A DNA stretch of 64,000 nucleotides from the NCBI GenBank assembly GCA_964019425.1, contig OZ025785.1, positions 930,001-994,000 on the forward strand. Reading direction: 5' to 3'. Below, piece by piece: positions 6,807 to 63,545 of this stretch (positions are counted from its first letter, which is position 1; each line of letters begins with the position of its first letter). The notes beneath the pieces were generated by a model. It was not told the DNA's origin. It did no database searches and saw only the letters and a program-made list of their open reading frames with translations. Source of the DNA: Flectonema sp. DT1601 (Eukaryota). A program made the position numbers and the translations under genes.

Positions 6807-7562
6807 TTATGTTTCTGAGGTGCTGGTCGCCTCCTTCTTAGCTCCGTAGTCGCGCTCTCCGAAAATTGCAGTCCCAACTCTCACCATTGTAGAACCTTCT
6901 GCGATAGCTTCTTCAAGATCTCCACTCATTCCCATGGAGAGATTGTTTATTAAAATGTTTGAAAGTTGTAGTTCGTTGATTTCACTTTGAAGTGATTTGA
7001 GTGTCCGAAAACATTTTCTAACTAAATCACGATCAGGTGAATTGATACCCACAGTCATCAGTCCTGAGATGTGTATTTTATCTCCAAATTTTTCAGAAAT
7101 ATTTTTTGCCAACGGGATACACTCCTCAGGAGTACATCCACTCTTTTGATCCTCACCAGAAGTATTAACCTGAAGGTAGATGTGAATAGTTTTGTTTATG
7201 GTGGTGAGTCTGCTGTAAATCTTTGCCGCTAACTTTCCCGAATCAACAGTTTGAATGCAATCAGCGAATGATAAAATATTATTTACTTTGTTGGTCTGGA
7301 GGTGACCAATAAAGTGTTTTTCGACTTTACTATGGTCATGGATGCCTTCTGCGACCCTTTCCATGGCTGTCTGAACGATGTTTTCAGCTATAACTGGATG
7401 GTCTTCTCGGCAGTGTTCTACAGCTTCAAGAACTTCGCTCATTGCTCGGGTTTTTGTTGCCAGGCAAAGTGTTACTTCTTTTGGGTCCCTACCACATGCT
7501 TCACATGCTGCATCGATTCTTTGATACGTCACTTGGATTCCCTCAGCTATTTTAGTAGACAT
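6807..7562 (-). CDS. PLPBP: PLP homeostasis protein, YggS/PROSC family
   Basis: LATKT (PLP lysine), HFIGHLQTNK, QVNTSGEDQKSG and LSMGMSGD...GSTMVRVGTAIFG motifs. Confidence 0.95.
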   Translation of the reverse strand: MSTKIAEGIQVTYQRIDAACEACGRDPKEVTLCLATKTRAMSEVLEAVEHCREDHPVIAENIVQTAMERVAEGIHDHSKVEKHFIGHLQTNKVNNILSFADCIQTVDSGKLAAKIYSRLTTINKTIHIYLQVNTSGEDQKSGCTPEECIPLAKNISEKFGDKIHISGLMTVGINSPDRDLVRKCFRTLKSLQSEINELQLSNILINNLSMGMSGDLEEAIAEGSTMVRVGTAIFGERDYGAKKEATSTSET

Positions 7563-7702
7563 TCTTATTACGGTTCTCGTTTTCGATCAGAGCTGATAGA
7601 ACGAAGTAACAAAATGAGAAAAATAAATATGCACAACAAGTCAATAACAAAAAACGAAAGCCACATTAAAAACCAAAACAAAACAAAACAATAATAAGAA
7701 AA

Positions 7703-20902: not shown

Positions 20903-21286
20903 GTTTAGTTTTGTTTGTAAAATACTGTTGAATGTAATATAAAAACACAAAATAACAAAATACATATGAAAGACGTACTGACTGCGCACATCCTGTTGAA
21001 CAAAGTAAATAACAAAAACAATCTAACCAATAAAGTCAATTAGCACACGACCCGCAAGCTCTCTGAAGAGAAATGCGAGTCACAACAGAGCAACAGCGGG
21101 CATCAGTCAAAGGTGTCGGCGATAAAAAAATAAATAAATAAAAAACAGATACAATGACGGTTTTGAGAGTAAAAAAAAACATGTCAATAAGCTGATAATA
21201 AGGCTGGCATAGTTAATCTATATAATGCATTGATACCTAATTTTTTTTAAAATTAAATCTTTTACTGGTAAGCAAGAAGATTATTT

Positions 21287-26009: not shown

Positions 26010-27353
26010 TCATTTTCTAGATTGCAACAACAACCCTGCCTTGTAGGCTTGCTTTGCAGACTTCGGAGCAGATCGAAGCTCTTTTTTTGTTAGAGTTCGC
26101 TTTCCTTTTTCATACTTATGTATGCCTTCTTTGGCTCCAGACCTGATACTTGTAGGGCACTTCACCTGTGTTGAAGCAGTCATCAAACCTTTCCTGTACC
26201 TTGCAACGAGCATTGCCACAGTGTAATTGACGTATGTTCCGCTTGGAGTAGTACTGATTTGAGCGTAAGAAGTTAAAGTTTCCTGATCAATATTTTGCTT
26301 GTACGTAGCAGGTGCACTAGAAACAATAGTGCGTTCGAATGCAACTAAAAAACACGGTAGCAGTAGGCGATCGTCAAAGAATACGACATAATCACCGGGG
26401 GTTTTTACACTACTAGCGAAGTGCCCAGATGTTAGACCAGCGCACACAATTATGTATCCAGAGTTCCGAGAATAACTAACACAGACAGAAGGATTGACAG
26501 AACTATAAATACCGATACCATGAACAGATCCGTTGGCAACTTGTACCGGATTAGTACCTGTATTTGGAATCCTCAATCCACCTGTTACAATATTTTTTAT
26601 ATTATTCAATGCAGTTCCATGAAAAACCATAACAGGGATCGAGTCCGGAGTTGATGTCTTCCAATGATTAGAAAATGTCGCTGCCAGCTCACTGTTGCAC
26701 ACATTGTATATAGTGATCGCTTGCATGCCTGACAGAGCAAATCTACTTTCGATCCTTTGTTTAAAATCTTTCCAGTATACCCGGGGATCGAACAGGATGT
26801 ATTTTAAAAGTCTATGAAGGGGAGGTTGGGCTTTTTTCACTTCTTTTTTTTTTTGTTGCTGCTTGTTTGACTTTTCCATAGCGTCAAGACGCTCTCTGTT
26901 GAATGTGGTTATAATACCACTGTGGCCTTCTTCAAAGAGGTCTTCTTCTAATTCCCAGGTAGGTCGGTTGTGTGATTTCCATTTTATAAGATAAGAGCAA
27001 ATACCTTTTCTAGCGTGTCGTTTCAAAATCTTTTCTGGCATCCACTCTGAAAGTGGATCTTCTTCCCAGGACTCTCCATATGATGCTGTTCTGTTTTCTG
27101 GGTTAAAGTCACAATCAGTTTCTACATCAACAGATGCAAAGTTGATGTCAGTTTCTTCATCGTCTTCCTCTGAAGGATGTTCTCTTTGAATTACTTCCAA
27201 TGCCGCCACTAAATCCTGTTCAGCCTCAGTAAACCAACTAAAATCCGTAGACACGCAGATTTCAAGTCCTTCTTCTTCCCCATCCGGGCCAACGAGAAAT
27301 AGTTCTTCCTCATCACAGTCAAATGACTCCACCTGCTCAGATGGCTCGCTCAT
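26010..27353 (-). CDS. Chromodomain plus PARP-like ADP-ribosyltransferase domain protein
   Basis: PEKIL..SYLIKWK..PTWELEEDL (chromodomain); MVFHGT..NI..GL..GSVHGIGIYSS..SYS (ART fold). Confidence 0.75.
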   Translation of the reverse strand: MSEPSEQVESFDCDEEELFLVGPDGEEEGLEICVSTDFSWFTEAEQDLVAALEVIQREHPSEEDDEETDINFASVDVETDCDFNPENRTASYGESWEEDPLSEWMPEKILKRHARKGICSYLIKWKSHNRPTWELEEDLFEEGHSGIITTFNRERLDAMEKSNKQQQKKKEVKKAQPPLHRLLKYILFDPRVYWKDFKQRIESRFALSGMQAITIYNVCNSELAATFSNHWKTSTPDSIPVMVFHGTALNNIKNIVTGGLRIPNTGTNPVQVANGSVHGIGIYSSVNPSVCVSYSRNSGYIIVCAGLTSGHFASSVKTPGDYVVFFDDRLLLPCFLVAFERTIVSSAPATYKQNIDQETLTSYAQISTTPSGTYVNYTVAMLVARYRKGLMTASTQVKCPTSIRSGAKEGIHKYEKGKRTLTKKELRSAPKSAKQAYKAGLLLQSRK

Positions 27354-27443
27354 CTGGTGAAGGGAAAACCGCTGTAAAAAATAAAAAGAAATATAAATAA
27401 AAACACCAACTCTACCACATCAACATATCTAACTGACACCTGG

Positions 27444-30160: not shown

Positions 30161-31810
30161 GGAAAATTCTCCGTTGCTACCCCAAAACTTTATTTTTCTC
30201 CGTTGTGTTTTTTTTTCTTTTTTTTTTTCGCTGTTGTGTGCCACCTATATTTTTTTTTCGCTATTGTGTGCCACCTGTACTTTTTTTTCGCTGTTGTGTG
30301 TCACCTGACCTTTTCCCCTTTTTTTTTTTTTTTTTTTTTTTTCGGAAGATTTTTTTTTTTTTTTGTGCACCTGTCGACCTGGTTAGTTAGATACACTCAT
30401 CTGATGGATTGATTGAAAGCTAATAACACAAACGGTTAAGGATGTGATGGCTTGGGAAATGATAAAAGTAATCTTCTCTCTGGAACTTCTGCTCAGTACA
30501 TGCAAATGCATCTTGACACGCGGGAACCCTTCGGGCAGTACTGCGCTCTTGATAATTCAAAGTAGCCTTAAAAAAGCTCTCATGCTTGCATGAGTTAGAT
30601 ACCCTGATAACCCGGTCAGAAACAGGAGTGTCGCTTGCGACCAGGCTGTCTGTAACTCGCAGGTGTCTTGACTTTGAAATTCGGTTGGAATGACGTGTAA
30701 GAGGACAACAGTTCTCTGTAAGGTGACCCAGCCCTGCACACATACCGTTCTTTGCATACACTCAGTAAAACTTCCAGAGGCTGAGAACACTATCAGGACC
30801 TGACGAACAACCCAACCTATCCGTGAGTATTTGTCTTTGCTAATCTCGTCAAGCCGGATGAACATCATACAAACGTTATCTCAACATCCGTGTGCGGGTG
30901 TTATCTTCCTCATCTCGGTTTAGCCCTGCACCATCTGCGGAACCGGTAGCCTACGATGCTTCAGTAAAACGTTCAGGTTCCTAACCACAAACGTTTTTCT
31001 CTCTAGGCTTTTACTCTTTTACTACGGACTCTCGCTTAAAGAGATTAAGAAAATCTCCAAGTGCGTAGCTGACTATGTGCACATATGAAAAAAGTTGGAG
31101 GAATTGCTAGTCTGTTGGGTTATATTCGTAGCAGCTTCACGGTGACGGCGGCCTTACCGAGAATTATCCCTGGTTATTACGTGTTGAAAGTCACAGGTTA
31201 TAGTGTCAAAATAATACTCGCGTGGGTGGTTGCTCTCTTCGGAGAGCATAACTTCAGACCCGTCAATTCGCGGCGCTTATATTTACGCACATCAATTAGT
31301 TGAACGAGTTCAAGTCACTTCCCTGCATAGCAGATCCGTGTCCTCTGTACTAACGCTATACTAAGTGTGACTGTGACTGATACACGTAATGGTTGGGTTC
31401 TTTAAGTACTCAGGACTGGTTGCTTGCTAATGTGAATGCTGACGTTCGAATTCTCCGACTTTCAAGTAAATTTAGGTGAATGATTTCTCTTGTTTTCTGT
31501 CTGACGCTTGTGATGCACCTCTTGTATTCTAAGTCACAGGTGTATGAGTAATACTTGGTAAGAGGAGCCCCAGGTCCAACAAGAGGAGCCACATGTTTTG
31601 TGCATTTTGGTGCCAGGTGGTCATAACCCATTTTTTTTTTTTTTTCCCCCGAGAAAAAAAAAAAGTGCTGGTACCCAACAGCGAAAAAAAAAAAAGAGTT
31701 GTTCACAACAGCGAAAAAACTTTTTGGGTGCAGGCAACGGAGAAAAAAAAGTTAAGGTGACAGGCAACGGAGAAAAAACTTTTTTTTATGTAGGCAACGG
31801 AGAATTCTCC
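30161..31810. mobile_element. Non-autonomous TIR DNA transposon (Mutator/foldback-like), 1650 bp
   Basis: Ends GGAAAATTCTCCGTTGC and GCAACGGAGAATTCTCC. Inverted subterminal motifs (CTCCGTTG, TTCGCTGTTG). 9-bp TSD TAAAAAATG at 30152-30160 and 31811-31819. No transposase ORF. Confidence 0.88.
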
Positions 31811-31822
31811 TAAAAAATGACA

Positions 31823-31918
31823 GCGTCCATGGTGCAATGGCAGCACACGCAAATCGAGTTGGGGTCCGTTGCCCACTTCTTCATATCGCGGATCTCGGTT
31901 CGATTCCGAGTGGATGCA
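31823..31918 (+). ncRNA. tRNA-like gene, copy 1, with extended anticodon arm or intron
   Basis: Acceptor GCGTCCA/TGGATGC-A, D stem GTGC/GCAC, T arm CTCGG-TTCGATT-CCGAG, A/B boxes and TTTT downstream. Confidence 0.8.
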
Positions 31919-31949
31919 TATTTTATACAAATACGTTCTACTACAGATC

Positions 31950-32646
31950 TGTAAGGATTTTCACGGACTCAAAATCCCTTCCGGATGAACTGCTGGGATC
32001 GTCACCGTGTTGCCACTTCAGTTCTCTGCATTCATGGAAGGTGCAGACAGAAGAATACCGAGTCCCTCAAGATACTGGAATACCTGCGCATGTTCCCTCG
32101 CACATTGGAATCGAATTTCACGATGAAGTTGACGCGCTTGCAAAGGAAGCAGCACACAACAAGAACATCCGACCTGTACTAGTCAAAGGCACGTACTTCT
32201 CGCGCTCATCACATGTTAAGCGCTGCATCAAGAAGGATCTGCTCAACGTGAGTGGTTACATTTGCTATAAAGACCTCATCGGAGGCCGTTCCGTTAAATA
32301 CCCTCCTGGGATGGAAAGAGCCGACGAGATACGGATAGCGAACTTCCGAGCAGGATGTCACCCGCTACTTCAGAACTGGCGCAAGATGATTAACTTCCCA
32401 TTTTGTGGCGAACCGTCCTCACAGGTTCACCTGCTGCAGGGATGTCAATCTCCTAAACTCGACTCGGCCAGGTTCAAAATCCTGGGCTTCTCAACACTGA
32501 TCGGCAAGTGGGATCGCGATCGGGAACTTATTATTGCCAACGAAATTCCTAACCTTGAAGCTCTCTTCACTTTGGCGTGGCTTCCATCACTCGCGTTGAT
32601 CATAAGGTGGATGAAACAAACATCTAACCTTAGGCTTTGGAAATAA
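31950..32646 (+). pseudogene. LINE ORF2 C-terminal fragment (RNase H plus degenerate zinc knuckle)
   Basis: IFTDSKSL, HVPSHIGIEFHDEVDALAKEAA and EIRIANFRAG..FCGE..HLL motifs. Confidence 0.8.
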
Positions 32647-33056
32647 AGTAGGTGACATGTAGTCGCCAATATCAATTGTTATTATTTTAGTATTTTCATC
32701 ATTATCAATCATCTCCTGGTTGGGTAACTGCACATCACCTTCGGTGTTGTCATAGTGTCTCTTCCAACACTCATGTCTCCTTCTTCTCCTATTCTCCTTA
32801 TAAATTTCTCTTGAGGGCAGACCTTCGGGCTGTTCAAGTGGTCTTTGACCACCACTCTAGTTATATGCTCGACTCTTTGTTTTCCTTATCAATGGCAGGA
32901 ATGGTAACCGAATTAGCTTCATGTGTCCAATTTTAAGGACGCGTGACTATTTATCTTATTTCCGTTGCCGCTCTTCTGACGTCCTCAGGCGGAGCCTACC
33001 AAATGTTTCCCGTGTTTCCAAATGTCAGACTTAAGTTAAAAAGAAAGACAAACATA

Positions 33057-34827
33057 TTTTTTTTTTTTTTTTTTTTTCGGGAAGATAAAATGGAAACTAC
33101 TCTCTTTGTCCTTTTTCATTATACTGTTAATTAGTACAATCTTTCTACTGACTCTGATCGTTGTCTCGACATACAGTGACAGGGAAAACCCGCGAGCTGG
33201 GGACGACAGTCTTCTTTAGCATTTAAGCATTTTTCGACTTGAAAAGACATGACCCTTCAATTTAATGAGTTCTCATGTTTCTGGGTTTGGGATGGGGAAT
33301 GTGCACTTCTTCTCTTGATCCTTTGTTCTCATGGATCCCTTGTCTCTGTGCACAAAAGATAATTCGTCGTCTACCCAGCTTTACATTTGTCGCTGTACCA
33401 GTAAATAAAATGGGGCGAAAGAAGGGGGTGTGAGTCGTCCGTCCTTTGATCTCTGGGGCGTACGGACGTCAAGTTTTTTCGCTTGAAGGTTTTTCATCCT
33501 TTTCTTGGGTTGGGGGGCGGCCTTTGATTTTTATAATATGTGTGCGGCCTTTGGCTCCACTGGTCGGTGTTTCCTGGGGGGGGGGGGGGGGGGGGGGGTG
33601 AAAAGCATGTTTTGGTCCGAGTTTGCCTCGTTGACCGGGGTTTTTTTTTTTTGGGGGGGGTCTGGTTGCAGGTTGTGTCTCCTGCTTCGCGGGGGCTTTG
33701 GTCACGTTTCTAACCTCGCTCCCGCTCTTGTTCTCCCTCGTCCTCTACCATGTGTTTTGGGTTGGCTCTGGGGTCTTGGCTCTGTCTTTTCCTCGACTCT
33801 TGAGACCTCCTTCGTGGAGTCCCTAGCGCCTTCCCCCTTTCGACGAGAAGTCCAGGACCCTTCGCGTTGGATCCCCTTCTCTCTCCCTCATCTCTCCTTG
33901 GGTGCTTTTCTCACTCTGTGACGACGACCTTGTGACCAACTCTACTCCTGCCACACCTTGTCCGTCTCGCTCCGCCGGCTCCGGGCGTACGCCCGCGTCC
34001 GTGAACGAGGTCAGGGAGCCCGGGGGCCCGTGTGCGTACCCCATTGTGTCGGGTGTGTCTCCCTTACCTACCCGACGCAGTGTGGGTTTCCTGTTGTAAC
34101 TCCGCGGCGCCTGTTCCCTCGTGGTGCCCTCCACTGGCTCCGGTTCCTTCTGCTTGCGTCTCTTCCTCTTCGCTTTCCTGCTCGGGTCTGGGGAGAGAAC
34201 CTCTATCCTCTCCCTCTCTTCTCCCTTCCTGTACCTCCTCCTCGCCTGCCGTTCACCTGAGCTCGGGGTGGACTCTCCCATTTCCGCCTGCAACACCTGC
34301 GGACTTGGGTCCTCCTTTCCGGCCCCCTTTGCCCCCGTCTTTGCCTTCCAGCCTCTCGTGCGTCCCCTTCCCGTATTTGTCTTCGGCGACACACACTCCT
34401 CCCTCTCCTCCTCCATTCCCTTTCTGTACTTCGTCCTCCCTCTCGTGCTCGGTGTCGACACCGTGCCCGGCGATCTCTCTGCGTCTTCCCCGCTCCCGTC
34501 ACTACCCACTGCGCGTGGTCCCATCTTCGCCCCCAAACTGGATCTCTCGGCCATTGGTTTTGTTTCGCCTGAGTTCACCAGCTTTGAAAGGGGCTCCGAT
34601 CGGCCCTCCCGTCGTGTTTCCGCGTTCCCCCCTTCTGGGTGTAGTCCCAGCATCCAGGCCATCTGACCTGCGTTCCCCTCGGGCGCCGCTCCCTCTTCCC
34701 ATTCCTGTTCATCGACCGTCATGGTCATTTGGGAGTCTGACGATCCCTCCTCCTCTGTGTCCGACTCTGCCACCTGGACCACGTCCTCTGACGTCTCCTC
34801 GACGTACTGGACTACTGACCCTTCCGC
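33057..34827 (-). mobile_element. GC-rich retroposed fragment D: low-complexity ORF, UTR and poly(A)
   Basis: Poly(A) at 33057-33077 (minus strand). R/E/G/P-rich ORF 33823-34827 with no ATG at the junction. Composition differs from host genes. Confidence 0.55.
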
Positions 34828-35225
34828 TTTTTTTTGAGGGAGGTGAGAGGCAAGTATGGCAGGAGAGCAAACCCTCGGAACCAGCGATCCTTATGTTACA
34901 TGAGTGTGCGCTAAAAAGATAAACTGCAACACAAGTTTTGGGCCGGTTTTCTAGGTCCTACCATATCTGTCGCCGAAGCGAAGAAAAGAAAAAGGAAAAA
35001 AAAAAACAATATTTGTGGTTGTGTTTGCGCTGATGGTTGCACTCCCACTTCCAGCGTGTTTTTTCTTTCTTCTTACATTTACATACAGTTTACATACAAC
35101 TCTGTCTTCCTTTTCACTCTTCTTTTTTTTTTTCCTTTTTCTTTTCACATGTTTGCTTCTTTACATTTTTTACAAGTTCACTTCTTTACATTTAATTTTT
35201 TCCGTTCATTCACTTTCCGTTTCAT
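34828..35225 (-). repeat. Repeat X (~390 bp plus A-tail)
   Basis: Near-identical to 48839-49245. 5'-shortened diverged copies at 60768-60932 and 57677-57765 (+) keep the 3' end and an A-tail. Confidence 0.9.
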
Positions 35226-35298
35226 AGAAGTGAAAAGAACAAAAACAAAGAGTCTGGTAGCACAGACGAGTGTAACCAAAAAAAAAATAATAATGACA

Positions 35299-35400
35299 GC
35301 GTCCATGGTGCAATGGCAGCACACGCAAATTGAAGTGGGGTCCGTTGCAGGGCCACCACTGTCTATATTGTGGATCTCGGTTCGATTCCGAGTGGATGCA
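35299..35400 (+). ncRNA. tRNA-like gene, copy 2 (102 nt)
   Basis: Same acceptor, D and T arms as copy 1. CGCAA/TTGTG stem topped by hairpin AGTGG-GGTCC-GTTGCA-GGGCC-A-CCACT. Confidence 0.8.
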
Positions 35401-35719
35401 TATTTTATACAAATACGTTCTATTCCTCCGTTTCGTGCACAAATAAAAAATCACAGTGTTATATTCTGTATAGTTGAAGATAAAGCCAATTCTTGTTTTG
35501 TTGTACCGACGTCGTCGGAGAAGAAACTATTCGGATTGAAAGCCCGATATTTCTTATGTTATGATTTGTTTTCCCCGTGCGACAGGATTTTGTCGGCGTT
35601 CAACGAAATATAAACTGATAAAGCTAAAGGAGGTTTACGTGTGCTGCCAACATTCTTTTTCGTTCTTACAATACTTGTTAAATGCAAAAAATAAAAATCT
35701 CCGAAGTGGGTCCCCTCAA

Positions 35720-36040
35720 CTCGTTACAACCCGACAGTATTGAACCGTGGGCTGATTTACCGAACCTCTCAATATCGTGTGGCTACGGACACTCCAAAAC
35801 CGTCGATGTTGCAGCTGATAAACCTAAGTTTGATGAATACTGCAGGGAACTAAGACCCTCAGACTCCACGATATATACTGATGGTTCTCATGACCCTAAG
35901 AACTACAGCAGTGCAGCGGCCGTGCAGGTCTTACCGGCGGAGTGTACCAGGGCATCCAGACTTGTGGCCACCGAAAGTAGTTACAAATCTGAACAGATAG
36001 CTCTGAAACTAGTGGTAAATGAAGTTGGCAAGATAAACTC
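35720..36040 (+). pseudogene. LINE RNase H N-terminal fragment
   Basis: EPW..IYTDGS..SAAAV..SSYKSEQIALK, similar to the RNase H of LINE B. Confidence 0.8.
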
Positions 36041-36043
36041 GCC

Positions 36044-36109
36044 GGGTGGTCCGTTGCAAGACCCATTACATTCACATTGCGGATCTCGGTTCGATTCCGA
36101 GTGGATGCA
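36044..36109 (+). ncRNA. tRNA-like gene, copy 3 (3' half only)
   Basis: GGTCCGTTGCAAGACC..TTGCGGATCTCGGTTCGATTCCGAGTGGATGCA followed by the shared tail ATTTTATACAAATACGTTCTA. A LINE fragment stands in place of the 5' half. Confidence 0.75.
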
Positions 36110-37754
36110 CATTTTATACAAATACGTTCTATCAACTTCAGAACAAATAACTATTGATTTAATGAAATCAGAGAGCCTGATTTTCGCGTGGGTGGGTTTC
36201 TACAGAGTGAGGTAAAGAAACGAGGCAAAACCCACTGCTCGGTGCACCCTCCTGTGTACAGATTCCTGTCCTCATGGTTTGGCTTGTTTAACTTTGAATT
36301 CGACCGGGGAGTCTAGATAACACGACTGCTAATGCAAGAAAGCCCTGCACAAGAAACTTGCTGTCTGTTGTTGCAGTCTCTTCTTTGAATGGTACGTGAC
36401 CTTGGACATTATCTCCTTTCAAGCCAGGATCAGGGACTGCAGAGCCTCATTTGACCTCAGCCACTGAAGCAGACTGCAATACGCGCAGTGTGAGTGTTTC
36501 ATCCCCAAGCTTGGTTCTCTTTGTGACTATAGTGAGACTTTCAAAAATGAAAGGAAAATCCTATCAGAACACATAATATCTCAAAAAAAATTCCGCTTCA
36601 ACTCTGTACTTGTACATTATTTCACGCCGCTCGAAACGGCCCTAATCAAAATGCGTGCAATTAAATCCGGTAAAAACTTCACGCTCTGATTTTCACAAGA
36701 TGATCGTTGTCATTCAGTGCAACCAAAAAGAATTTTTCTTCGCCTTGGCGACGGGTAATCGTGAGCCTGTAAAACCAGCTTAAGACTGCTGAAAAAGGAG
36801 AGAAAAAAATTGTTTTCACCGAACGAGTCTGGTAGGCAGGTGGCAGACTACTGGATGAGTCAAGAAGGCGAGTGATCTTTTGATGCCGTTGCCCAAGACA
36901 GACGGGAGTGCTATAATTTTTTTGAAGGAAAATAAAGTGGACAGACGGGAGGGGATGCATCTAAGTGAATATTTTTTCTCCTTTCATTTTTTTTTTTTTT
37001 TTTTGATACTGGATATGTTGTGATACAGAGAAGGTTAATTCTCTGTTCACTCGATATCCTGTTTATGAGCGGGGTAAGTTGACCCCAAAAGGTTCGTTCA
37101 TAAATAGAGAGGAATACAATAGAGAAACAGAAGACTGAGCTAGTTTAGTCTAATGTGCAGCAAGAGTTACGTAAAAATAAAATTAATCAGCATAATAGTT
37201 ACAACAGCATGGTTTGACGGGTTACACGATTAACCCTTATTCTTTGAGTTGTTGACATGTTTATAATCCTCATGTGAGTACATCTAATTTACTTTACGTC
37301 TTCATCTAAATAAGTGTTCTCCACATCTTAAAACTGTCAGCCCTCCTTCCAGCAATCAGCTTTCCCTCTTGCTTAAGAAGTTTTTCGCATAATGGAAGTT
37401 AAGAAGAGCAAGATGAACAAAAGACTTAGTTAGATTTGTCTAATGTTAAGCAAGAGTTACGTAATAAATGTTATCAGCATAATTGTTATTATCAGCATAA
37501 TTAAACAGCAAAATGACAGGCTTCTCAATGAACCCTTCTTGTTCTCAAGGAGTAGGATGATCTCTTCTGTTCATTTAACTTACTGCAGTATCCTCATCAT
37601 TTTCGTAACTACATAATCTTCATCTTTTAAATGACATCAGAATCACCTTCTTCATACATCAGAATCCTCTTCATCATCTGTTCCCCTGTCTGCTTTCCTT
37701 CGGCACCACAAGGCATCTACCTTCACAAAAGAGTGGGGCAAAAGCATCGTTTCT

Positions 37755-40700
37755 TTATTCTCTTATGAGCCTCACCCTTTGGATAAGCCCTTTTCCCACT
37801 TCACATATATATTTCAACAGTATTTTCATACCATCGAATTCATTCACGTGTCCTTCTAACTCTTGTTCCGATAGTATAAGAGATTCGAAGTTTGTTTTTC
37901 TTTCCTTATAGAATGCAGGGCATTCACATACAAAGTGTTGTACTGTGTCTTCGACTTCACAGCATTGACACAATCCATTTCTATATCTATTATCAGTTTG
38001 CTTTGTGGTAAAGCATGCCTTTCCCATCCTTATTTGAGAGATCAATATTTCCATTTCCCTATTGAATTTCGGAGGAAATGATTCTTTCTTTCCTATTTTA
38101 ACTTTTGTATGTAAGAATTTCATTTTCGTCGTTACAGTTTTGTAATCAACTTTGACTTTGTCTTGTTCCATATGTACTGCTTCAGCAGCAAGAGCATCTG
38201 CCCTTTCATTCCCTTCGATTCCACAATGTGAGAAAATATGAGATATATTAACTTTCAAACCCTGTTCACACAGTATTCCCAGGATAATCCAGCATTTAAG
38301 ACCTAGCTCAGTCCGTTGGTAGCAATGACCTCTTTTTAGTTCAGATAAGGCACTCTGTGAGTCTGAGAGAACTAGAATTGCCTTGTCTTCCAACTCCCTA
38401 TTTGGTTTTTTCTTTATTACTTTCAGTAAAGTATTGAGAGCGTGGTATATTGCAAATAACTCCGATCTAAAAGAAGAGCATATTTTTCCTGCCGGGAATT
38501 TACCTTCCAGGAATTTCTCTTCAAAATTTATTACAAATGATGCACCTCCAACTCCTTCACTTACAGAGCCGTCAGTATATATTGTCGCAAGTATGTTGTT
38601 TTCATATTTTTCTTCTAATTTTCTGATAAGTTCTTTACAGATATCTTGATTTCTATTCGTGTTTTCGCATTTTCTCGCACCAATATTTTCGTTAATTTCT
38701 ATTTTATCAAAATCCTTCCAAGGAGGAAAGTAAGTTGGAGGATAAAGTTCTACTGGTAGGTCTGTGAGACCAATATCACTATACGTTTTGATTGCAAAAC
38801 ACAATGTTTGCATATGTTTATATTTTATTTTTCGTTTTTCCATCAATCTTTTGGTACAAGGAGAGGCACGCAGTCGTTCGATCTTTGCAGCCCATCTTGC
38901 TGTTTCAACAAGATAGTAGCTGTTCAGATCCGCTACGCAGGATTCTTCCAAGACCTTCTCAAATTTTGTTCCGTAGTCAGCACCAGTTATGATTTGAGCT
39001 GCTTTCATATGAAGAGTATTCAGTTTTCGCATTAGTTTTCTGTTTCGTACAATGGTGCTGTACAAACTCTCGATAGCATAGGTAAATACAGGTATGATGT
39101 ATATTAAGTAGACTAGTCTGATTATATTTTTAGTACAACCCCATCTTTTATCAGCCAGCATTTTTAGGAAGCGAAGTTTCTTGTTCACACTTTTACATAT
39201 TTGAGATACATGATCAGAAAACGATAGATCATTATCAATCTGGACACCTAAGAACCTCTCAGAATCAGTTTCTGTTAGGCACGTCTTATCTTTAAATTTA
39301 ATTTTATATTGGCATTTCTTTTTCCGTGAGGTACTCGAGTCAACAATCATTATTTTTGTTTTATCTCTCGCCAACTCAAGATTAATGTTGTTTAAGTGTT
39401 CTTCCGCTTTCGTAAATACAGTTTGAACTCTTTTTGACAGCCTACCAGCACAATTTTCGTCAGATACTACAAATGCAATATCATCTGCATAGAGTGACAT
39501 GTTTGCTTTGTTCTCTATAATTTCGGTTATTTCATCAATGTAGAGTACAAATAATATACTCGCAAGGACAGTTCCCTGCGGGACTCCATTTGTGAGCTTA
39601 ATGTACTTGCTTACTCTGCTGTTAATTATAGTCGCAGCTGTCCTTTTGTGCAGAAAGCTTTCGACCCACCTAATATAGTTTTCAGGTATCGACATCTTTC
39701 TCATTCTTTCTTGTAACTTGTGGTGGTTGACAGAATCAAAAGCTTTCTTTATATCCATAAAGACAACCGCCGAAGTTTTCCCTCTTATTCTATTCTCTTT
39801 GAGTATATCGATTAGGTACAGAATCTGTTCCCTACACGATCTCGTTTTACGATAAGCAGCTTGATTATGACTCAGGTTTTTAACACCATTGTTATGTTTT
39901 TCTAAGTGATATACAAGTCTGTTCTTTATTAATTTTTCGATAAGTTTAGCGATCGCAGGGGTGAGCGCTATCATCCTGTAAGATGCTGGATTGTGGGGGT
40001 CTTTTCCGGGTTTTGCAATCGGTACCCAATAAGTCTGTTTCCAGTCATTAGGTACTACCATGTTCAACCAAGAGTTATTTAGGATATCAACTAATGTTTT
40101 TTGCATTTTGGGTTTTAGATTTTGCAACAGGATCGCATTCATTCCGTCAGGTGAAGATTTGGTACTATGTAGTTTTCCCAATTGTGTCATCACCTCAGAA
40201 AAAGTGAACGGAACTATGTCATCTTTAATATTCATGTTGAAGTTATGTCTGTACTTTTCATTTATATCTTTCCCTACTATAGTTGAGAAGAAATCAGTAA
40301 AGAAATCAGCTTTTTCCTTATCGTCGATTATTTTTTCCATATTTGGGTCGTGTATAAATGGTATTTCTACCCTTTCACACCGCCCGTCAAGTTTTCTCAC
40401 ATCATCCATGTACTTTAAAATGCCATCTTTGTTCGGAGATCCATCATCCGTAACACATTCTTTCACTCTTTTTTCAATTTGTTGTTCCCTACATTCTTTT
40501 ACTTTTTCACATATTTCTTCATTCAATTTCTTTAGTAGTGCCATATTTTCATCATTCAGGTCGCTGTCATCTGTAATTTCTTTTTGTTTAGCTTCAAATT
40601 GACGAAGCTGTTTCATTAGTTCGGAGTTCCACCACTTCTTCGCTTTTCGCCTACGCACATAGATTCTAGGTACGTGTTTACTTTTTGCTTTTAATATTTC

Positions 40701-41690
40701 ATTCTTAAAGATTTTTGCTTTCTTTTCATTGATCTTAATATTTTGGATTCTCTCAGAGACTAATTCAAGGTCATCACTGAAGTTTGTCCAATCAGCTTCG
40801 GCCCAGTTGAAACCACATTTTTTCACTTTTTGGTAGTCAACATTTTTGCACGAGTTTTGTATTACAATCATCATTGGTGAGTGATCAGAGTTAACTGTTC
40901 CAAGGGTAGACCAGGATTTTATTCTCATATTTGTATTCGTTAGGGTTATGTCCGGAGAGGTCCTTGATTCCAACCTTGTTGGAATTGATGGCTCATTCCA
41001 ACACACAAGATTGTTTTCACTAATCCACTCAGATACGATTTCTCCGTTGATGTCGTCAATGGAATTCTCTTCCCACATATGGTTATGTGTATTAAAGTCT
41101 CCCATTATGACAACATCATTTTTCATATTATTTTTCAAGTCAATGCAATCTAGGCTAAGATTCGGGCACCTAGTATCTTTATATTGCAGGGGTGGACGAT
41201 ATATGTTATAGACAATTAGAGGTTCATCACATTGTATTTCAACAGCTGATATTTCAAGTGAGTCACAATCACTTTGTGTGATCGCGATTTCTTTAAATTT
41301 ATATTTATTATGAACATAGGTTAGTAGACCTCCTCCTCTTATAGGTTTACCTACTTGTGTTGGAAGTGTCCTATCTTTCCTATATGAGTTATAATCTTCA
41401 ATTACGGGTGTTTTCTTATTTTTCGTTAAAAATGTCTCTTGTATTAATAGCACGTCAGGTTCATAGTTAATAACAAGGAGACGTAGAAGTTCAATTGATG
41501 TTGTCATCGACCTCGTGTTTACTGATATTATTTTAAGGTCTGTATAGTTTCTTTCATTATTTGGTTCCGGGTTGGGATGGACATTACCACGTTGAACCAG
41601 CAAGTTGTCATTAATCACATTTATGCTTTTCTCAACGTTGGTGTCTATTGGAGGGGACGGGTTGTTGTTTTTATGAGTATGGTCTGCATG
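37755..41690 (-). CDS. LINE C ORF2: 2A-like peptide, APE, RT (YADD), RNase H and CCHC knuckle
   Basis: IISVN, IQET, MGDFN, SDH; YRMIAL, GVPQG, YADD, RFLG; IYTDGS, SDSQS, SHCGIEGNERAD; CQCC..H..C. The frame is open from the ORF1 stop onward. Confidence 0.95.
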   Translation of the reverse strand, partial: HADHTHKNNNPSPPIDTNVEKSINVINDNLLVQRGNVHPNPEPNNERNYTDLKIISVNTRSMTTSIELLRLLVINYEPDVLLIQETFLTKNKKTPVIEDYNSYRKDRTLPTQVGKPIRGGGLLTYVHNKYKFKEIAITQSDCDSLEISAVEIQCDEPLIVYNIYRPPLQYKDTRCPNLSLDCIDLKNNMKNDVVIMGDFNTHNHMWEENSIDDINGEIVSEWISENNLVCWNEPSIPTRLESRTSPDITLTNTNMRIKSWSTLGTVNSDHSPMMIVIQNSCKNVDYQKVKKCGFNWAEADWTNFSDDLELVSERIQNIKINEKKAKIFKNEILKAKSKHVPRIYVRRRKAKKWWNSELMKQLRQFEAKQKEITDDSDLNDENMALLKKLNEEICEKVKECREQQIEKRVKECVTDDGSPNKDGILKYMDDVRKLDGRCERVEIPFIHDPNMEKIIDDKEKADFFTDFFSTIVGKDINEKYRHNFNMNIKDDIVPFTFSEVMTQLGKLHSTKSSPDGMNAILLQNLKPKMQKTLVDILNNSWLNMVVPNDWKQTYWVPIAKPGKDPHNPASYRMIALTPAIAKLIEKLIKNRLVYHLEKHNNGVKNLSHNQAAYRKTRSCREQILYLIDILKENRIRGKTSAVVFMDIKKAFDSVNHHKLQERMRKMSIPENYIRWVESFLHKRTAATIINSRVSKYIKLTNGVPQGTVLASILFVLYIDEITEIIENKANMSLYADDIAFVVSDENCAGRLSKRVQTVFTKAEEHLNNINLELARDKTKIMIVDSSTSRKKKCQYKIKFKDKTCLTETDSERFLGVQIDNDLSFSDHVSQICKSVNKKLRFLKMLADKRWGCTKNIIRLVYLIYIIPVFTYAIESLYSTIVRNRKLMRKLNTLHMKAAQIITGADYGTKFEKVLEESCVADLNSYYLVETARWAAKIERLRASPCTKRLMEKRKIKYKHMQTLCFAIKTYSDIGLTDLPVELYPPTYFPPWKDFDKIEINENIGARKCENTNRNQDICKELIRKLEEKYENNILATIYTDGSVSEGVGGASFVINFEEKFLEGKFPAGKICSSFRSELFAIYHALNTLLKVIKKKPNRELEDKAILVLSDSQSALSELKRGHCYQRTELGLKCWIILGILCEQGLKVNISHIFSHCGIEGNERADALAAEAVHMEQDKVKVDYKTVTTKMKFLHTKVKIGKKESFPPKFNREMEILISQIRMGKACFTTKQTDNRYRNGLCQCCEVEDTVQHFVCECPAFYKERKTNFESLILSEQELEGHVNEFDGMKILLKYICEVGKGLIQRVRLIRE

Positions 41691-44600
41691 TCAATCATAT
41701 TCACCGTTTGACATGTCCACATCAGATCCACTGATCTCTGTCTGCCCTAATCCTGGCATTAGTATTTCTAGTTTTGTTTCAATTTGCATGAAACGTTTTT
41801 GGATTGCCTCAAAGTTTTTGTTTTGATTTGCAACATTATTTTCTATTTTCGCAACACGAACGTTGCTTATTTCGACATTTTTTTCAATGTTCTCTATTTT
41901 ATTGAAATACGTCTCATTCATCGACAATAATTTGTCAAGTTTACTCTCCATACCACTTTGTTGCACTTTTTCTTGTTTGTCTGATTCAGGCTTTGCCTGT
42001 GGTGCACCTTCAGCTGTATGGGTTATCAGCTTTGGTTTCGGCCTTTCGGTTCGGGTGCAAGCAAGCTTCACCCCATGGTCTGGCCATTCCAACACCATTC
42101 TATTCTCACCTCCCAGAAAGTCATCCTCTATTTTGAGGACCCACTTGCCATCAATTACTTTGATCGGCTTCACCACAATATCTTTTGTTGCGAAGTTCGC
42201 AATTATCTTGTCCACTGGGACTCCCTTGGGAATACCCTCTACCGAGAAGTATCCTAGGGACTTCACCCCAATACTTTTTCGTACCTGTTCCCTACAGGCG
42301 TTCTCTACCCGTACTCCATAATTTCCCCTACACAGGGCTATTCCATAAGTGCTCTTTACACTTTCCTGCGCTAATATGGACGTTTTTAGGTCCATTCTCC
42401 CCAGCCAGATCACACTTAAGATCTGGTTCATGGGGTGGTCTTTCCTTAGTCTGAAAAACAGCCCTCCTCTTCCGGAGGCACTTAAAAATAGTCTTAGATT
42501 TGGTTCTTCTATCTTGAGAAGAATCGAGAAGGTTTTAAATTCAGGAAGTTTATCGTTGATTTTTTGTGTACTTATGTCGGGACGATAGAGCCCTAATATT
42601 TTTTCACTGTAATTTATAGATGTTAAAATTCTTTGAAACGATGCTTTTACATCACAATTTTGTGTGTCGAAATCAGATACGCCTTTATATTCAGCTTCAG
42701 TTAAAGCCCTCACGGTGGTTTCAGCAATAACAACGATTCCATCAGATATTTTTTTTTTTTTTTTTTGAGTGCATCACGACCCGTGAGTCTGTGATGCTGA
42801 TTGCGCTGTTAGGCGCGGTTGTTCTTTTTCTTTCTTTCTTTCTTACTTTCTTTGTTTTGGGGGTTGGGTGGGAATCCCGTAGGCTTCGTATCTCCTTTCT
42901 TTGTTTTGATAACTTAAAACTAATACTACAGAATAAATTGTCCACTTGGACGACTTCAGATGTGTTGCAATGATGCCTTCAATGTTGATATTCGAAATGT
43001 CGATGTTTTAATAATACTACCGTCCTAATAGTTGTGCCAGTCTGTCTAAGGTTGTGACAAAACCAGTCATCTGCTGTTGATTCGCAGGTAAGTAGCAGTC
43101 CTCCAGTTGGCATGCTTCCTCTCCCTTGTCATTCATCATGTGACTGATGTATTTTTCTCTCAAGGTTTCTATACACCAATGTTCGCATATAAATAATACA
43201 TGATGCGCTGTCGCCTTTCCAAGTTTACAGAAAAAGCACAGCTCGTTCAGTCCTTTGATTATCAGAGATCTGCAATGTCCCACTCTAAAGCGTGACATCA
43301 GTACTTCCTCTGGTCGTGTTAGAACTTCGATGTACGGAGTGTCTTACCCCTCCTGGTCCAATCCAGTTCTCCCGTTTTCTCCGCTTGTGAAACGTCATCA
43401 ATGTTCCCATGTCAAGTTGAGTGGGCAGTTGTTTAATAATAACATCTTCGTGAGGTGGATCTTCCTTCAGGCCTGCAGCGAATTTCGCCAGTTGGTCCGC
43501 TACTTCGTTGTACCGCACGTTTCTGTGTGCCGGTACATACTGCATGTTGACTTGGATTCCCTTCTTCTCCAGTTTCATTGCCAACTTCCAGATCTTTTTG
43601 TTCATTGGGGACCTTTGTTTATATGGCCCTTGTTCCAATGCCTGCATGACTGACATCGAATCAGTCAACAGGTGCGTCGTTGCTGTTAGAGATTCATGTT
43701 CATCCTCCGCCACCTGAACTAAATTTTCCAACGCCAGTTTTACTGCAATCTGCTCGGTCCTATAAGAGGAACCCGCTACTGGTATTTTATATCCAAGTAG
43801 ACGCATCTTGCTTTCTTTTACTATGACCACAGCGGCAGCCGAGTCTGTCATGTAAGTCTCGGATTTGTGTCTTATCGACCCGTCAGTGTAGACTTTCATC
43901 TCGTGAGTTGGTAGTTCAGCTTCTCGCTGTTCAGCCTCTTCCTTGTTACTTGAATATGTGAATCTCATCGCACTAGTACTTTTCCATGGAGGGAGAGTGT
44001 AGTGTTCTGGGTTCACTTCCAGGTTGGTAATGCTCCGGTAATTGTCAAGGCCAGGGACACCAGAGACATAGTCTATCCAGACATTCCATCCCCATTTTGA
44101 TTTTTGAAATAATTCTGAACTCCCTGTTCTCGTCAGCTTGCGAGTCGGTAAGAACGGACTTAATTTGAAACGTTCGTAAGTTCTACACATCTTATACTGG
44201 ATGTGTTCCTTCAGTCTTGGCGTGTCGGCTTCTTTGTATAGTCTCTGTAGTTTGGTGCTCCGCAGACATCCAGTTACCAGCCTCACTGCCCTGTTTACCA
44301 GTAATTCCAGTTGTTCGAAGCACTCTTTTGGTAACATCCAAGCAAAGCTTTCAACACCATAAAGCACCCTTGCTAACACCACCGTCACTAGTATACTAAT
44401 GAGTGTCCTCTTTCTGCAGCCTATCCTAGTGAGTCTAACCAACAAGCCTAGACCCTTGGAAGCAGCTGTCATCATCTTTTGAATTTGCGACTTAAAGGTT
44501 AACTTCTCGTCGTAATGTACACCCAGATACCGCACGGTATTCGTCTTGTGAACTTTTCGTCCAACCGCATAGGCAAATCCGTGTAGTCCGGGTCCCACTC

Positions 44601-47600
44601 TTTGCAGCATCTTATCTATTTCTGCCTTGTTGTGGACTTTCTTCAGTTGTGGGAAGCGGGCACTCATCTTCATTGTTTTCAGTACCGCCGGTTTGTTCGG
44701 TAGCTTGACTTTGATCTTATGTTTTGGAACGACATACAGGTGAGTGATGGCGAATTCTTCTTTTGAAGCTACAGTTGTTGAGTTATCATCCTTCACAAGG
44801 TTACTCATTTGTTCTGCCGTGGCCACCACATATTTAAATGTGTGTTCTTCAGAGTATACTACTACTGGGGACTTGTCATGTGTTCCTCTTGGCCTCACGT
44901 GAATGTATTCCGTCTTGCCAGGGTTCTTATTGATTTTGATGTGTGAGTCAAGTGCCCACCTTTCAAATATTTTGACTGCGTTGTTAACCTTGTTTTCTAA
45001 ACAGCTGACAGTGCCCGCGGTTATTACTATTCCAACATCATCTGCAAAGACAGTCGGTTCGTACATCTCTAGTTTATCTATCAAATCATTTATGAAGATA
45101 GAGAATAACTGGGGTCCCAGCACGCTTCCTTGTGGCACTCCTACTCGAATGTTCCGGAATGCTCCCTTCACTCCATTCACCCTTGTTGAAATCTTCCTGC
45201 TAGTCAAGTAGTTTTGAACCCACCGTAGATATTTCGTTGGTAGTCCTATTTTGGACATCTTATTTAGAAGAGTTACCGGTTGAACTGCATCGAAGGCTTT
45301 TTGTAGGTCGAAGGTGATTAATATCGCTTCTTCTCCCATTGCCTTGGCACTTTTGAGTTTGTCTGTAACTATACAGAGATTTTCAATGGAATCCCGTCCT
45401 CGTTTGTAGGCTGCTTGCCTCGGATTCATTCTGTCTTTCAACAGGTGGTGCATCCGTTCTACGACCATTCTTTCAAAGAGTTTCGAGACGGTCGAGGTTA
45501 GTGCTATCGGTCTGTACGATAAGACTTGTTTCTTGTCTTTATCAGGTTTCAGTATGGGTATTATCATTCCACTTTTCCAGCACCTGGGTACTGCTGATCG
45601 TTGCCATGAGAGGTTGAATAGTCTTAGTAGTTGCTCGAGGAAAGCTTTTGGAAGTTGTTTTAACATCGAGTTCCAGATGTGGTCAGGTCCAGGTGCCTTC
45701 TTCTCCTTTGTTTTTGAAATTTGTCGTTCCAGTTCAGGCATTCCAAATTCCACCGAGTTATCATCAGGTATTCCTTGCAAGGTTGGTTCACCGTCTTCGA
45801 ATTTGAATTGGTCTGCGTATGTTTTGGTGAAGACATCTGCCATCTCCCGCGGGTCGGTTAATTCCTTCTCACCGTCGACAATCTTAGTAATTGAATGGTC
45901 CATCATTCTACCTTCCAGTTGTTTAACTTTTCTAAAGGCCCATCGGTAGTCCATTCCAGTCATGTCGCACTCAATGATCTTCTGTTTAATCATGTTGATA
46001 CCTCTTTCAATTGCTTCTGAGTCTGTCTTATCAGGGTCAGTCTCTGCCATTAAATCTTCCAATTCTGAATCCCTCACAGCGAAGGTACTACTTGACTTCT
46101 TGTTGTAGCCTGGGATGGCCCTACTCGCTGCTCTCAGAATCTCGTTGTTGATCCTATTAGCAAGTTTCTGCACATTCTTAATTCTTTCTAATTTGGGCGC
46201 TGCCCTTTCCAACAATATTTTATAATAATTCCAATCGGCACAATGCCACTTCCATTTCCATGTTCCAGAACTCTCTTTTGAATATTCATCTGTTTTGATA
46301 TCTTCGATTGTCAGTTTGAGTGGCAGGTGATCGCTGCCCCATCCCTTCATGAGTTCGATTTGTGCATCTATTGAAATATCTAATGCAATTACATCCGGAG
46401 AAGCTGAGCTTTGTGGTCTTGTTTGTTGTTGAGGTTTATTTAAAATTTGAATTGTTGCTTCTAGTGACCAATCGTAGAAGCTGTTACCAGTAATGTTCGT
46501 ATTTCCATTTGACCAAGTTGAATGGTGTCCATTAATGTCACCCGCAATCAATGTGCCGGGCTCTGTTTTGAACTTCCAGGTTGTTGCCTTGATTTCAGGC
46601 GGGTGGTAAACATTGTGAATTGTCAATGGCGGATTAGATTGAAGTACTACTGTTAATATCTCAGTTTGGTCATGTGAGATGTCGGGGTGTTTTAATATTA
46701 ACTTATTTAAATCATTTCTGACCAGAGTGACGAGTCCTCGATGACCTGACTTGATGGTGCTGTCTCGCCTGTGGATTGCATATCCTTCAATAGCGAATTG
46801 TTTTTCTTTTGATAACCACGTTTCCTGCAGTAGTACTACTTCAGGCTTTTCTTCTTTCAGTGCCCAGTTCAATCGAAAGTAATTTTCTGGTTTCAGAACT
46901 GAGCGAATGTTATTTGACCAGATCACAATCATGATTGGCCAGTGTTGTTCCTATTGGTCGCACTTGTAGTAATCTTGTTCATACCAAGATTGTTCTCAAT
47001 CCTCTTGACAGCTTCTATCAACGAAGTGATGGCTGTCGCCATGTTGTTGTTGGCTGCTTCGTTCTTTTTCGTAGTTTGCACCAGGGTTTCTACAATCCCG
47101 GTTATCTGTGCCATGCCTTCATCAAGTCGAACTTGCATGTCTTTTACTTCTTTCTGGAGACGTTCGATAGTCTCGTTCGTTTTCTCTCTCAGGCTGTTCA
47201 CGTTGTTTTCTACAACCTGAACTTCGGCCGTTGGTTTCTTCGTTGTCGGGAGTGACCTCTTGACCGCTGCTGCGTACGATGTCTTAGCCTCACGGTACTT
47301 AACTACAACAGGTTTCTCCGTTTCTTTCGCCTTCACTTCTGTTTCTAATTTTTCAATGAGGATGACAATATCACCACACTGTACAAACCTTGATTCTGGT
47401 TTCTTGTCCAGTGCGATGATAAAGTCCCCTCTGTCCATCCTTATAAACTTCGACTTCAGTCCTATCTCCAATAGGATGTTCCGAAGTCTATTGCCCCAGC
47501 TGTATGGTGCTCCACTGAGACGGTGGAGCCCTTCGCCAAACACTGTGGATGCGTATTTACCAGCACCCTTTCTCACCTTGTCAACATCCTTCGTGTAAAC

Positions 47601-50144: not shown

Positions 50145-50190
50145 AGACAAGAAAGATGTGACAAAATAAAAAAAAAGTGTAGCTTTCAGA

Positions 50191-50197
50191 GCCGCTT

Positions 50198-50246
<49 letters not shown>

Positions 50247-50263
50247 AATCCCAGGTGGTGGCA
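50191..50263 (+). tRNA. trnF-GAA: tRNA-Phe(GAA)
   Basis: 73-nt cloverleaf with anticodon arm TCAGA-CTGAAGA-TCTGA and a T5 terminator. Confidence 0.97.
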
Positions 50264-63470: not shown

Positions 63471-63472
63471 GA

Positions 63473-63479
63473 GCCGCTT

Positions 63480-63528
<49 letters not shown>

Positions 63529-63545
63529 AATCCCAGGTGGTGGCA
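63473..63545 (+). tRNA. trnF-GAA: tRNA-Phe(GAA), identical to 50191-50263
   Basis: Same 73-nt sequence with a T6 terminator. Confidence 0.97.

Follow-up and report, generated by a model that had tools for sequence, protein, structure and literature searches.

A family of tRNA-like sequences with an alanine-type acceptor stem, a serine triplet and a hairpin insert in a presumed diplonemid: candidates for a role other than routine decoding

Diplonemids belong to the most abundant eukaryotes of the sea, and little has been described of their nuclear small RNAs. For the signal recognition particle (SRP) of trypanosomatids, an RNA named sRNA-85 has been described, which is not charged and whose anticodon stem is longer and bulged (PMC2800229). 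For Diplonema papillatum, intron-bearing transfer RNA (tRNA) genes have been reported (PMC10161547), as has a predicted nuclear RtcB from the tRNA-ligase clade (PMC12699882), and candidate tRNA deaminases have been identified in diplonemids (PMC10161547, PMC12699882). Alanyl-tRNA synthetase (AlaRS) reads the G3:U70 pair and ignores the anticodon, and seryl-tRNA synthetase (SerRS) requires a long variable arm (PMC12084884). In mammals, tRNA fragments are captured by long interspersed nuclear elements (LINEs), giving tRNA/LINE chimeras with half-length tRNA (PMC11838501), and chimeras of small RNAs and LINEs made by RtcB were also identified (PMC6789731). Here, a family of three tRNA-like sequences is analysed, which lies in a stretch of 64,000 nucleotides from Flectonema sp. 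DT1601 (contig OZ025785.1 of assembly GCA_964019425.1, positions 930,001 to 994,000), below called the window. Its host is taken as a diplonemid.

Two whole copies and one 3' piece are present where the original prediction, made from the letters of the window, had placed them (Table 1). The downstream tail that it had described as common to the copies is also real: a 22-nt trailer follows all three, and its 21-mer has 3 occurrences where 0.01 would be expected, a count reached by 0 of 100 shuffles; allowing up to 3 mismatches, the trailer matches nothing else in the window. The ends of all copies coincide to within one base. The three copies are packed in 4.3 kb, and by blastn and a T-loop motif scan no fourth copy was found within the 64 kb, the other 60 kb being devoid of any. 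A run of four T (T4) comes after the tRNA-like body, and T5 after both conventional tRNA-Phe genes of the window. The family is tentatively read, at a probability of roughly 40%, as a tRNA-like RNA of RNA polymerase III (Pol III) that is handled as a precursor tRNA (pre-tRNA) and is not kept as a decoder.

Without the insert, the body has a length of 70 nt, and the whole copies have 96-102 nt. The acceptor stem (7/7 pairs, with G1-C72, C2-G71 and G3·U70), the D stem (4/4) and the T stem (5/5) are completely paired, and the anticodon stem has 5/5 pairs in copy 2 and 4/5 in copy 1 (A30·C40). The variable loop consists of the 3 nt GAT, and the discriminator is A73. Of the features of the tRNA fold (RF00005), U8, A14, G18, G19, a consensus T loop and A15 with U48 were found. 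The acceptor set of tRNA-Ala is present as G3·U70 and A73, with U70 and A73 in 3/3 copies, and an NGC anticodon of tRNA-Ala in a 7-nt loop is absent: A32 and U33 are followed by CGA-G in copy 1 or UGA-A in copy 2, then by 26 or 32 bases and then by A38, the triplet thus being CGA or UGA. The long variable arm of tRNA-Ser is absent as well, and A73 stands in the place of the G73 of tRNA-Ser. Numbered as tRNA, the copies therefore have the anatomy that had been claimed for them, namely an Ala acceptor set, a Ser triplet and no variable arm. The predicted insert of about 25-30 nt is also there, with its lengths corrected to 26, 32 and 32 nt. In contrast, the UGC at the hairpin apex cannot be upheld as an Ala anticodon, since the apex loop has 6 nt in the fold of copy 2 and is altered to GUUGCC in copy 1. 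For the insert of copy 3 alone, 578 of 1000 shuffles fold as well.

In a narrow search, the Rfam tRNA model identified copy 2 at 41.4 bits (E 1.8e-6, cut-off 29) and did not report copy 1 under the tRNA family; Rfam and ARAGORN runs on the whole window missed copies 1 and 2. The intron search of ARAGORN, at the default threshold, assigned copy 2 to Ser(TGA) and placed an intron of 32 nt at 37. Copy 1 was called SeC(TCA), for selenocysteine, with an intron at 31, which disagrees with the hand numbering, so that the program and the hand numbering concur on the intron position for copy 2 only. Overall, the tRNA variant is real and apparently undescribed.

By hand numbering, 2/2 whole copies have the insert at the canonical intron position 37/38 together with U33 and a purine at 37. 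For the anticodon-intron (A-I) pair, formed by position 32 and intron position -3, copy 2 has A-U. Copy 1 has A·C there, as would copy 3 if A32 is assumed for it. In the register of the bulge-helix-bulge, 1/4 pairs are formed in each of copies 1 and 2, i.e. the helix is absent. A continuous register of 32-37 with insert positions -1 to -6, in which A38 is bulged, gives 5/6 pairs in copy 1 and 4/6 in copy 2.

On this basis, the following course is proposed. The RNA is likely transcribed by Pol III and handled as an intron-bearing pre-tRNA. Pairing of 32-37 with the 3' end of the insert is predicted to make the arm one long bulged helix in which the triplet is buried; in the predicted folds, the tRNA body has an anticodon stem that is longer and bulged, as in the description of sRNA-85 (PMC2800229). 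The splicing endonuclease might be able to cut after 37. Its 3' cut, which in the model of splicing applied here needs the A-I pair present in 1/3 copies, although the diplonemid enzyme may follow its own rules, would be poor in copies 1 and 3, so that uncut or half-cut RNA would remain. One piece consisting of intron plus 3' exon was probably captured by a LINE and would be seen today as copy 3. In the weakest step, acceptor and elbow may be kept for end-processing, for possible alanine charging and for a non-decoding job on the ribosome or in a ribonucleoprotein, like that of sRNA-85.

Other ways of reading the arm were considered and rejected. Taking the hairpin as a Ser-type variable arm leaves, as judged by eye, an anticodon stem of 3/5 pairs. 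A shifted register (GAA/GAG) loses U33 and the purine at 37 in copy 1. For a reader of stop codons, with UCA/CUA just before 38 as in the SeC call by ARAGORN, position 37 is a pyrimidine in 3/3 copies, and these bases are the pairing partners of the buried triplet and not an anticodon.

Whether serine codons are read as alanine was addressed by a codon test, for which four proteins of the window were aligned to 119, 119, 150 and 119 homologs, and 1668 of 1896 positions, each with at least 30 aligned homologs, were kept; glyoxalase II and U2A' stayed outside with too few usable homologs. At the 56 columns with TCA, the homologs have mean frequencies of 0.29 for Ser and 0.08 for Ala; 11 of these columns are mostly Ser, 1 is mostly Ala, and 8 reach at least 80% Ser. 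For TCG, with only 12 columns, the means are 0.22 and 0.10 (1 mostly Ser, 0 mostly Ala), compared to 0.28 and 0.07 for the 47 AGY columns and 0.06 and 0.36 for the 121 GCN columns (0 mostly Ser, 31 mostly Ala). The commonest Ser codon is TCA, with 180 of 601 in 20 open reading frames (ORFs). The UCA and UCG columns resemble serine columns, and there is therefore no reassignment: UCA and UCG still mean serine, for UCG on few columns, and misreading of a few percent lies below the reach of the test. Wholesale Ser-to-Ala decoding is thus excluded for UCA and unsupported for UCG by these four genes. Since no such switch is present in the code, a role other than routine decoding would be the likely one for these RNAs.

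A weaker form of alanine decoding was also considered, in which the family encodes a true intron-containing tRNA that is spliced at 37/38, charged with alanine via G3·U70 and reads UCA and UCG at low efficiency beside tRNA-Ser, the outcome being statistical Ser-to-Ala misincorporation. The spliced product would bear the determinant of AlaRS and would be without the arm needed by SerRS (PMC12084884), and the default ARAGORN call of copy 2 with its intron at 37, the U33 and purine 37 of both whole copies and a hint of actual cleavage after 37 in copy 3 point in the same direction. However, TCA is the most used Ser codon and occupies 8 columns with at least 80% Ser, the Ala means for TCA and TCG lie below that for GCN, 2/3 copies are without the A-I pair, and splicing would yield a form with A32·A38 and a variable loop of 3 nt, in which the 30-40 pair of copy 1 is broken. 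In three genes, UCA/UCG seemed to avoid conserved Ser sites (5/51 versus 12/32, p 0.004); the effect was gone once the fourth gene was added (12/68 versus 12/40, p 0.16) and was rejected. Such a reader is regarded as unlikely. Quite unlikely, too, is its specific version, in which a spliced 70-nt tRNA of the copy 2 type is charged by AlaRS and reads UCA/UCG, the cutting of the intron sets the dose of mistranslation, and copy 3 is a half-spliced fossil.

The comparison of the copies points to different constraints on their parts. Over the 70-nt body and 29 nt of common flank, copies 1 and 2 differ only at 34, 37, 40 and 42; 4/4 body differences fall into the 17-nt anticodon arm and 0 into the remaining 53 nt (P 0.003 if evenly spread). 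For the named structure and the three sequences, 16/16 pairs of the acceptor, D and T helices are invariant, and the 18 pairs of the long arm show 4 one-sided and 2 two-sided changes, with 87.5% of the cells paired. Between copies 2 and 3, 18 of 32 insert positions are identical. The elbow nucleotides are unchanged as well, whereas the anticodon arm and the insert drift. Because the 16 pairs never vary while the long arm changes, the ends look to be under constraint and the arm loose. This is at odds with an ordinary intron-bearing tRNA that follows lineage-specific rules, be it by an edited anticodon or by a diplonemid synthetase accepting a short-arm body: isodecoders normally keep the anticodon arm, which here is the sole variable part of the body, and the tRNA-Phe genes of the window are conventional. 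Diplonemids do have intron-bearing tRNAs and candidate tRNA deaminases (PMC10161547, PMC12699882), and the D-arm motif of the family is one of ordinary tRNAs, but this explanation is considered very improbable.

For copy 3, the surrounding DNA is informative. The LINE fragments ending at 36043 and starting at 31941 align to consecutive parts of the LINE protein P0534 (residues 755-835 and from 846), lie in compatible frames and match with E values of 6e-8 and 6e-5 apart and 1.5e-13 when joined via X; in the joined RNase H, the Glu-to-Asp spacing is 26, compared to 31-33 in intact elements. Both fragments would thus appear to come from one family. As they are consecutive halves of one RNase H, copy 3 would once have been inserted there. 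Read most simply, a piece of insert, 3' exon and 22-nt trailer would have lain inside the RNase H gene and later have swapped flanks with a whole copy. Assuming an ungapped 32-nt insert, copy 3 begins at the first base after position 37, which is the extent of a half-spliced intermediate. The insertion into a LINE raises both the intron reading and the reading as a mobile element. The sequence immediately left of copy 3 contains CGC, an Ala triplet, which was rejected: it has 5/8 matches, a score reached by 9% of the 8-mers of the window, and the bases to the left of copy 3 continue the LINE frame. Among 25 LINE proteins checked, a translation of the element was found only in the window's own P0121, which belongs to a 90%-identity cluster of n=9.

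Table 1. Positions of the tRNA-like copies and of the adjoining LINE fragments in the window
Feature	Position	Strand	Remarks
Leader of copy 1, 7 nt, same in copy 2	31816..31822	+	possible Pol III start region
Copy 1, tRNA-like body, G3·U70, A73	31823..31918	+	triplet CGA 31855-31857; A30·C40 mismatch
Insert of copy 1, 26 nt	31859-31884	+	without anticodon-intron pair
Trailer of copy 1, 22 nt	31919..31940	+	T4 at +3 to +6
LINE ORF2 3' part: RNase H second half and C-terminus	31941..32646	+	predicted protein P0121
Leader of copy 2, 7 nt	35292..35298	+	
Copy 2, best-formed copy	35299..35400	+	triplet TGA 35331-35333
Hairpin insert of copy 2, 32 nt	35335-35366	+	A32 pairable with U at insert -3
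Trailer of copy 2, 22 nt	35401..35422	+	
LINE RNase H first half, up to start of copy 3	35811..36043	+	alignment and frame continue at 31941
Copy 3, 3' piece: 32-nt insert (36044-36075) and positions 38-73	36044..36109	+	left end on the predicted 5' splice site or a few bases off
Trailer of copy 3, 22 nt, one change at +1	36110..36131	+	

The mobile-element explanation is that of a tRNA-derived short interspersed nuclear element (SINE) or retrocopy family without host function, in which a unit from -7 to +22 was copied by the local LINEs, the ends being kept for transcription and mobilisation and the middle varying by source gene. It would account for ends that agree to one base, for a 5'-truncated copy 3 inserted into an RNase H gene, and for copies all nested among LINEs with apurinic endonuclease (APE), reverse transcriptase (RT) and RNase H domains, one family of which has 91 cluster members at 90% identity; half-length tRNA/LINE chimeras are also known from mammals (PMC11838501). 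On the other hand, no duplication abuts any of the 3 copies in the window and no poly(A) follows them, the copies lying in rearranged DNA, whereas a LINE end in the same window beside a tRNA-Phe gene does have a poly(A) tail and a duplication of ~6 bp. No LINE end within the window matches the trailer, decay is absent from the acceptor, D and T arms, and three copies in 4.3 kb stand against none in the rest of the window. The true tRNA-Phe genes (50191-50263 and 63473-63545) are just as hemmed in by LINEs, and the context does therefore not discriminate; the company of LINEs is the usual lot of Pol III genes in this window. A plain SINE, as listed by the original prediction, is thus disfavoured by the missing duplication and poly(A) and by the T4 after the body, and favoured by the insertion of copy 3 into a LINE. 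The mobile-element explanation is held to be rather unlikely.

The contrasting LINE end belongs to a locus that is described here for itself. The flank upstream of the tRNA-Phe gene at 63473 (63399-63545) is repeated at 36917-36986, where it ends at a LINE poly(A) end; between this flank and the tRNA-Phe gene at 50191 (50185-50263) lie 13 kb of nested insertions, with a duplication of ~6 bp. This suggests a LINE whose insertions lie head to head with tRNA genes, at a distance of a few bases upstream. Both minus-strand LINE ORF2s with endonuclease, RT and RNase H at 37755-41690 and 43285-46950 are open, and each has an upstream ORF1 without a Pfam family at threshold; the element with 91 members in its 90%-identity cluster is the one at 43285-46950. 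In each of the two tRNA-Phe genes, the acceptor stem contains the mismatch U7·U66 as well as several G·U pairs.

Several points weigh against a structured RNA that is handled as a pre-tRNA and kept from decoding. The sample is small, with three copies of which two are complete, and a probable exchange of flanks makes copies 1 and 3 dependent on each other. Covariation in the long arm of the three sequences is not above that of shuffles, 124 of 500 of which reach it. With the changes at 34 (C/U) and 37 (G/A), the Ser box is kept and position 37 stays a purine, as would be so under a constraint from decoding, and copy 2 has the A-I pair, so that its full splicing is possible. The conservation of the trailer past T4 and the insertion into a LINE fit a mobile element equally well. 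The left boundary of copy 3 is fixed only to ~36036-36047, and its match to the splice site could therefore be a coincidence of about 1 in 8.

The options listed by the original prediction, a mismatched tRNA, a non-decoding RNA, and a SINE or promoter, all remain live. In the last of them, the RNA would be a by-product, and the DNA would act as a Pol III promoter or chromatin boundary heading a co-oriented gene cluster. In trypanosomes, tRNA-like genes lie beside small-RNA genes in a promoter role. The boxes of the D and T arms are intact here, and the copies are placed just past the 5' end of the minus-strand gene cluster (1.5-28 kb). However, the Rfam scan of the window gave no small nuclear RNA, 7SL or other small RNA at the gathering score, and the acceptor stem is invariant as well, although a promoter does not need it; this role appears, if anything, even less probable than that of an ordinary tRNA.

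The window as a whole reads as eukaryotic, with ~18 long, intron-poor minus-strand ORFs between 1.5 and 28 kb, followed from ~30 kb onward by nested repeats and non-LTR (long terminal repeat) retrotransposons that encode domains of endonuclease, reverse transcriptase and RNase H. The top named homolog of a pyridoxal phosphate (PLP)-binding protein is from Diplonema papillatum, at 57% identity, with bacterial matches at 51% or less. This protein and a flavin adenine dinucleotide (FAD) oxidoreductase are encoded on the minus strand (6807-7586 and 19070-21022). After the top four, the relatives of the PLP-binding protein are bacterial-type, and among the matches listed for the oxidoreductase, one close transcriptome match is followed by 36-49% identity; both genes are possible horizontal acquisitions. 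At 26010-27419, also on the minus strand, a PARP-like catalytic domain is fused to a Chromo domain.

Next to the copies, 30-nt repeat arrays lie in opposite orientation at 30161-30345 and 31650-31810. At the hairpin apex lies an 8-mer that is reverse-complementary to the end of the 30-nt unit and has 8 matches in the window against 1.23 expected, all within 30.1-36.1 kb: 3 in the tRNA-like elements, 4 in the arrays and 1 at 32961. Chance, common origin or antisense targeting could be behind this match. A 14-mer just upstream of copy 2 (35268-35281) occurs again at 62289-62302 (2 matches versus 0.08 expected). There it is part of the repeat found upstream of the tRNA-Phe loci, and it is possibly a common flank or an upstream element of Pol III genes.

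Relatives were sought by exact motifs in collections with few eukaryotes, a search that misses diverged relatives, and no member of the family was identified among 90 metagenome loci with the 5' motif, 3 viral and 6 prokaryote loci with the T-arm motif, and 37 viral loci with the D-arm motif. Of the latter, 23 are tRNA-Gln and 6 tRNA-Arg. With a D-arm motif that is Gln/Arg-like, descent of the body from a tRNA-Ala is not obvious, and G3·U70 could have arisen by a C-to-T change that became fixed at a CpG. In four phage loci (L118, L127, L132 and L139), a tRNA-like D and T arm with a long insert replacing the anticodon loop was observed; these resemble the element in sequence only at the D arm. 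A description of such an RNA in diplonemids was not found in the literature searched, and the passages considered of PMC12621601 and PMC7293025 hold nothing direct on it; relatives may be listed in the structural-RNA supplement of PMC10161547.

If the RNAs are spliced and charged, they would be natural mismatched tRNAs, and programmed mistranslation could be tested in a lineage that can be cultured. Otherwise, they would be candidates for the equivalent, in diplonemids, of the tRNA-like SRP RNA of trypanosomes or for a new Ala-chargeable tRNA mimic. The captured piece of intron plus 3' exon, if true, would be rare genomic evidence of a LINE copying a tRNA-splicing intermediate. For a high-copy SINE, the significance would be modest.

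Among known systems, a G3·U70 body with a non-Ala triplet occurs in the CUG-Ala yeasts. Like the element, the tRNA-like domain of transfer-messenger RNA (tmRNA) combines G3·U70, A73 and a T arm with a long helix where the anticodon arm would be, and only a short linker leads to the T stem. In contrast to tmRNA, the element has a complete 4-bp D stem and no tag reading frame, and neither ARAGORN nor Rfam called a tmRNA on the copies. With pre-tRNAs that carry an intron at 37/38 and are substrates of TSEN (PMC10485636, PMC8479045), the element shares the cloverleaf, an insert one base past the triplet that pairs back onto the anticodon loop, and a T-run after the discriminator. It differs from them by A32 instead of a pyrimidine, by an A-I pair in 1/3 copies, by the 3-nt variable loop, by the disagreement of acceptor identity and triplet, and by an anticodon arm that differs among the copies. 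Mistranslating anticodon variants of tRNA-Ala (PMC12084884) likewise have a G3·U70 body with a non-Ala triplet, but these are single changes on a normal tRNA-Ala, whereas the element has a D arm of the Gln/Arg type and an insert, and its host's proteins show no reassignment. SINEs and tRNA/LINE retrocopies (PMC11838501, PMC6789731) are comparable in the 5'-truncated copy fused to a LINE and in the sharp common ends; unlike them, the element has no duplication, poly(A) or LINE-like tail, retains its terminator, and has as its captured piece the 3' part plus insert in sense orientation. For sRNA-85 (PMC2800229), the differences are its 85 nt and uncharged state, compared to 96-102 nt and an Ala acceptor set in the diplonemid RNAs. 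An SRP RNA of this type would pair with 7SL RNA and be purified together with it, and the window has no 7SL gene at the Rfam gathering score. As a tRNA-like, non-decoding RNA of the sister lineage with a longer, multi-bulged anticodon stem, sRNA-85 is, by description and not by sequence, the nearest euglenozoan parallel.

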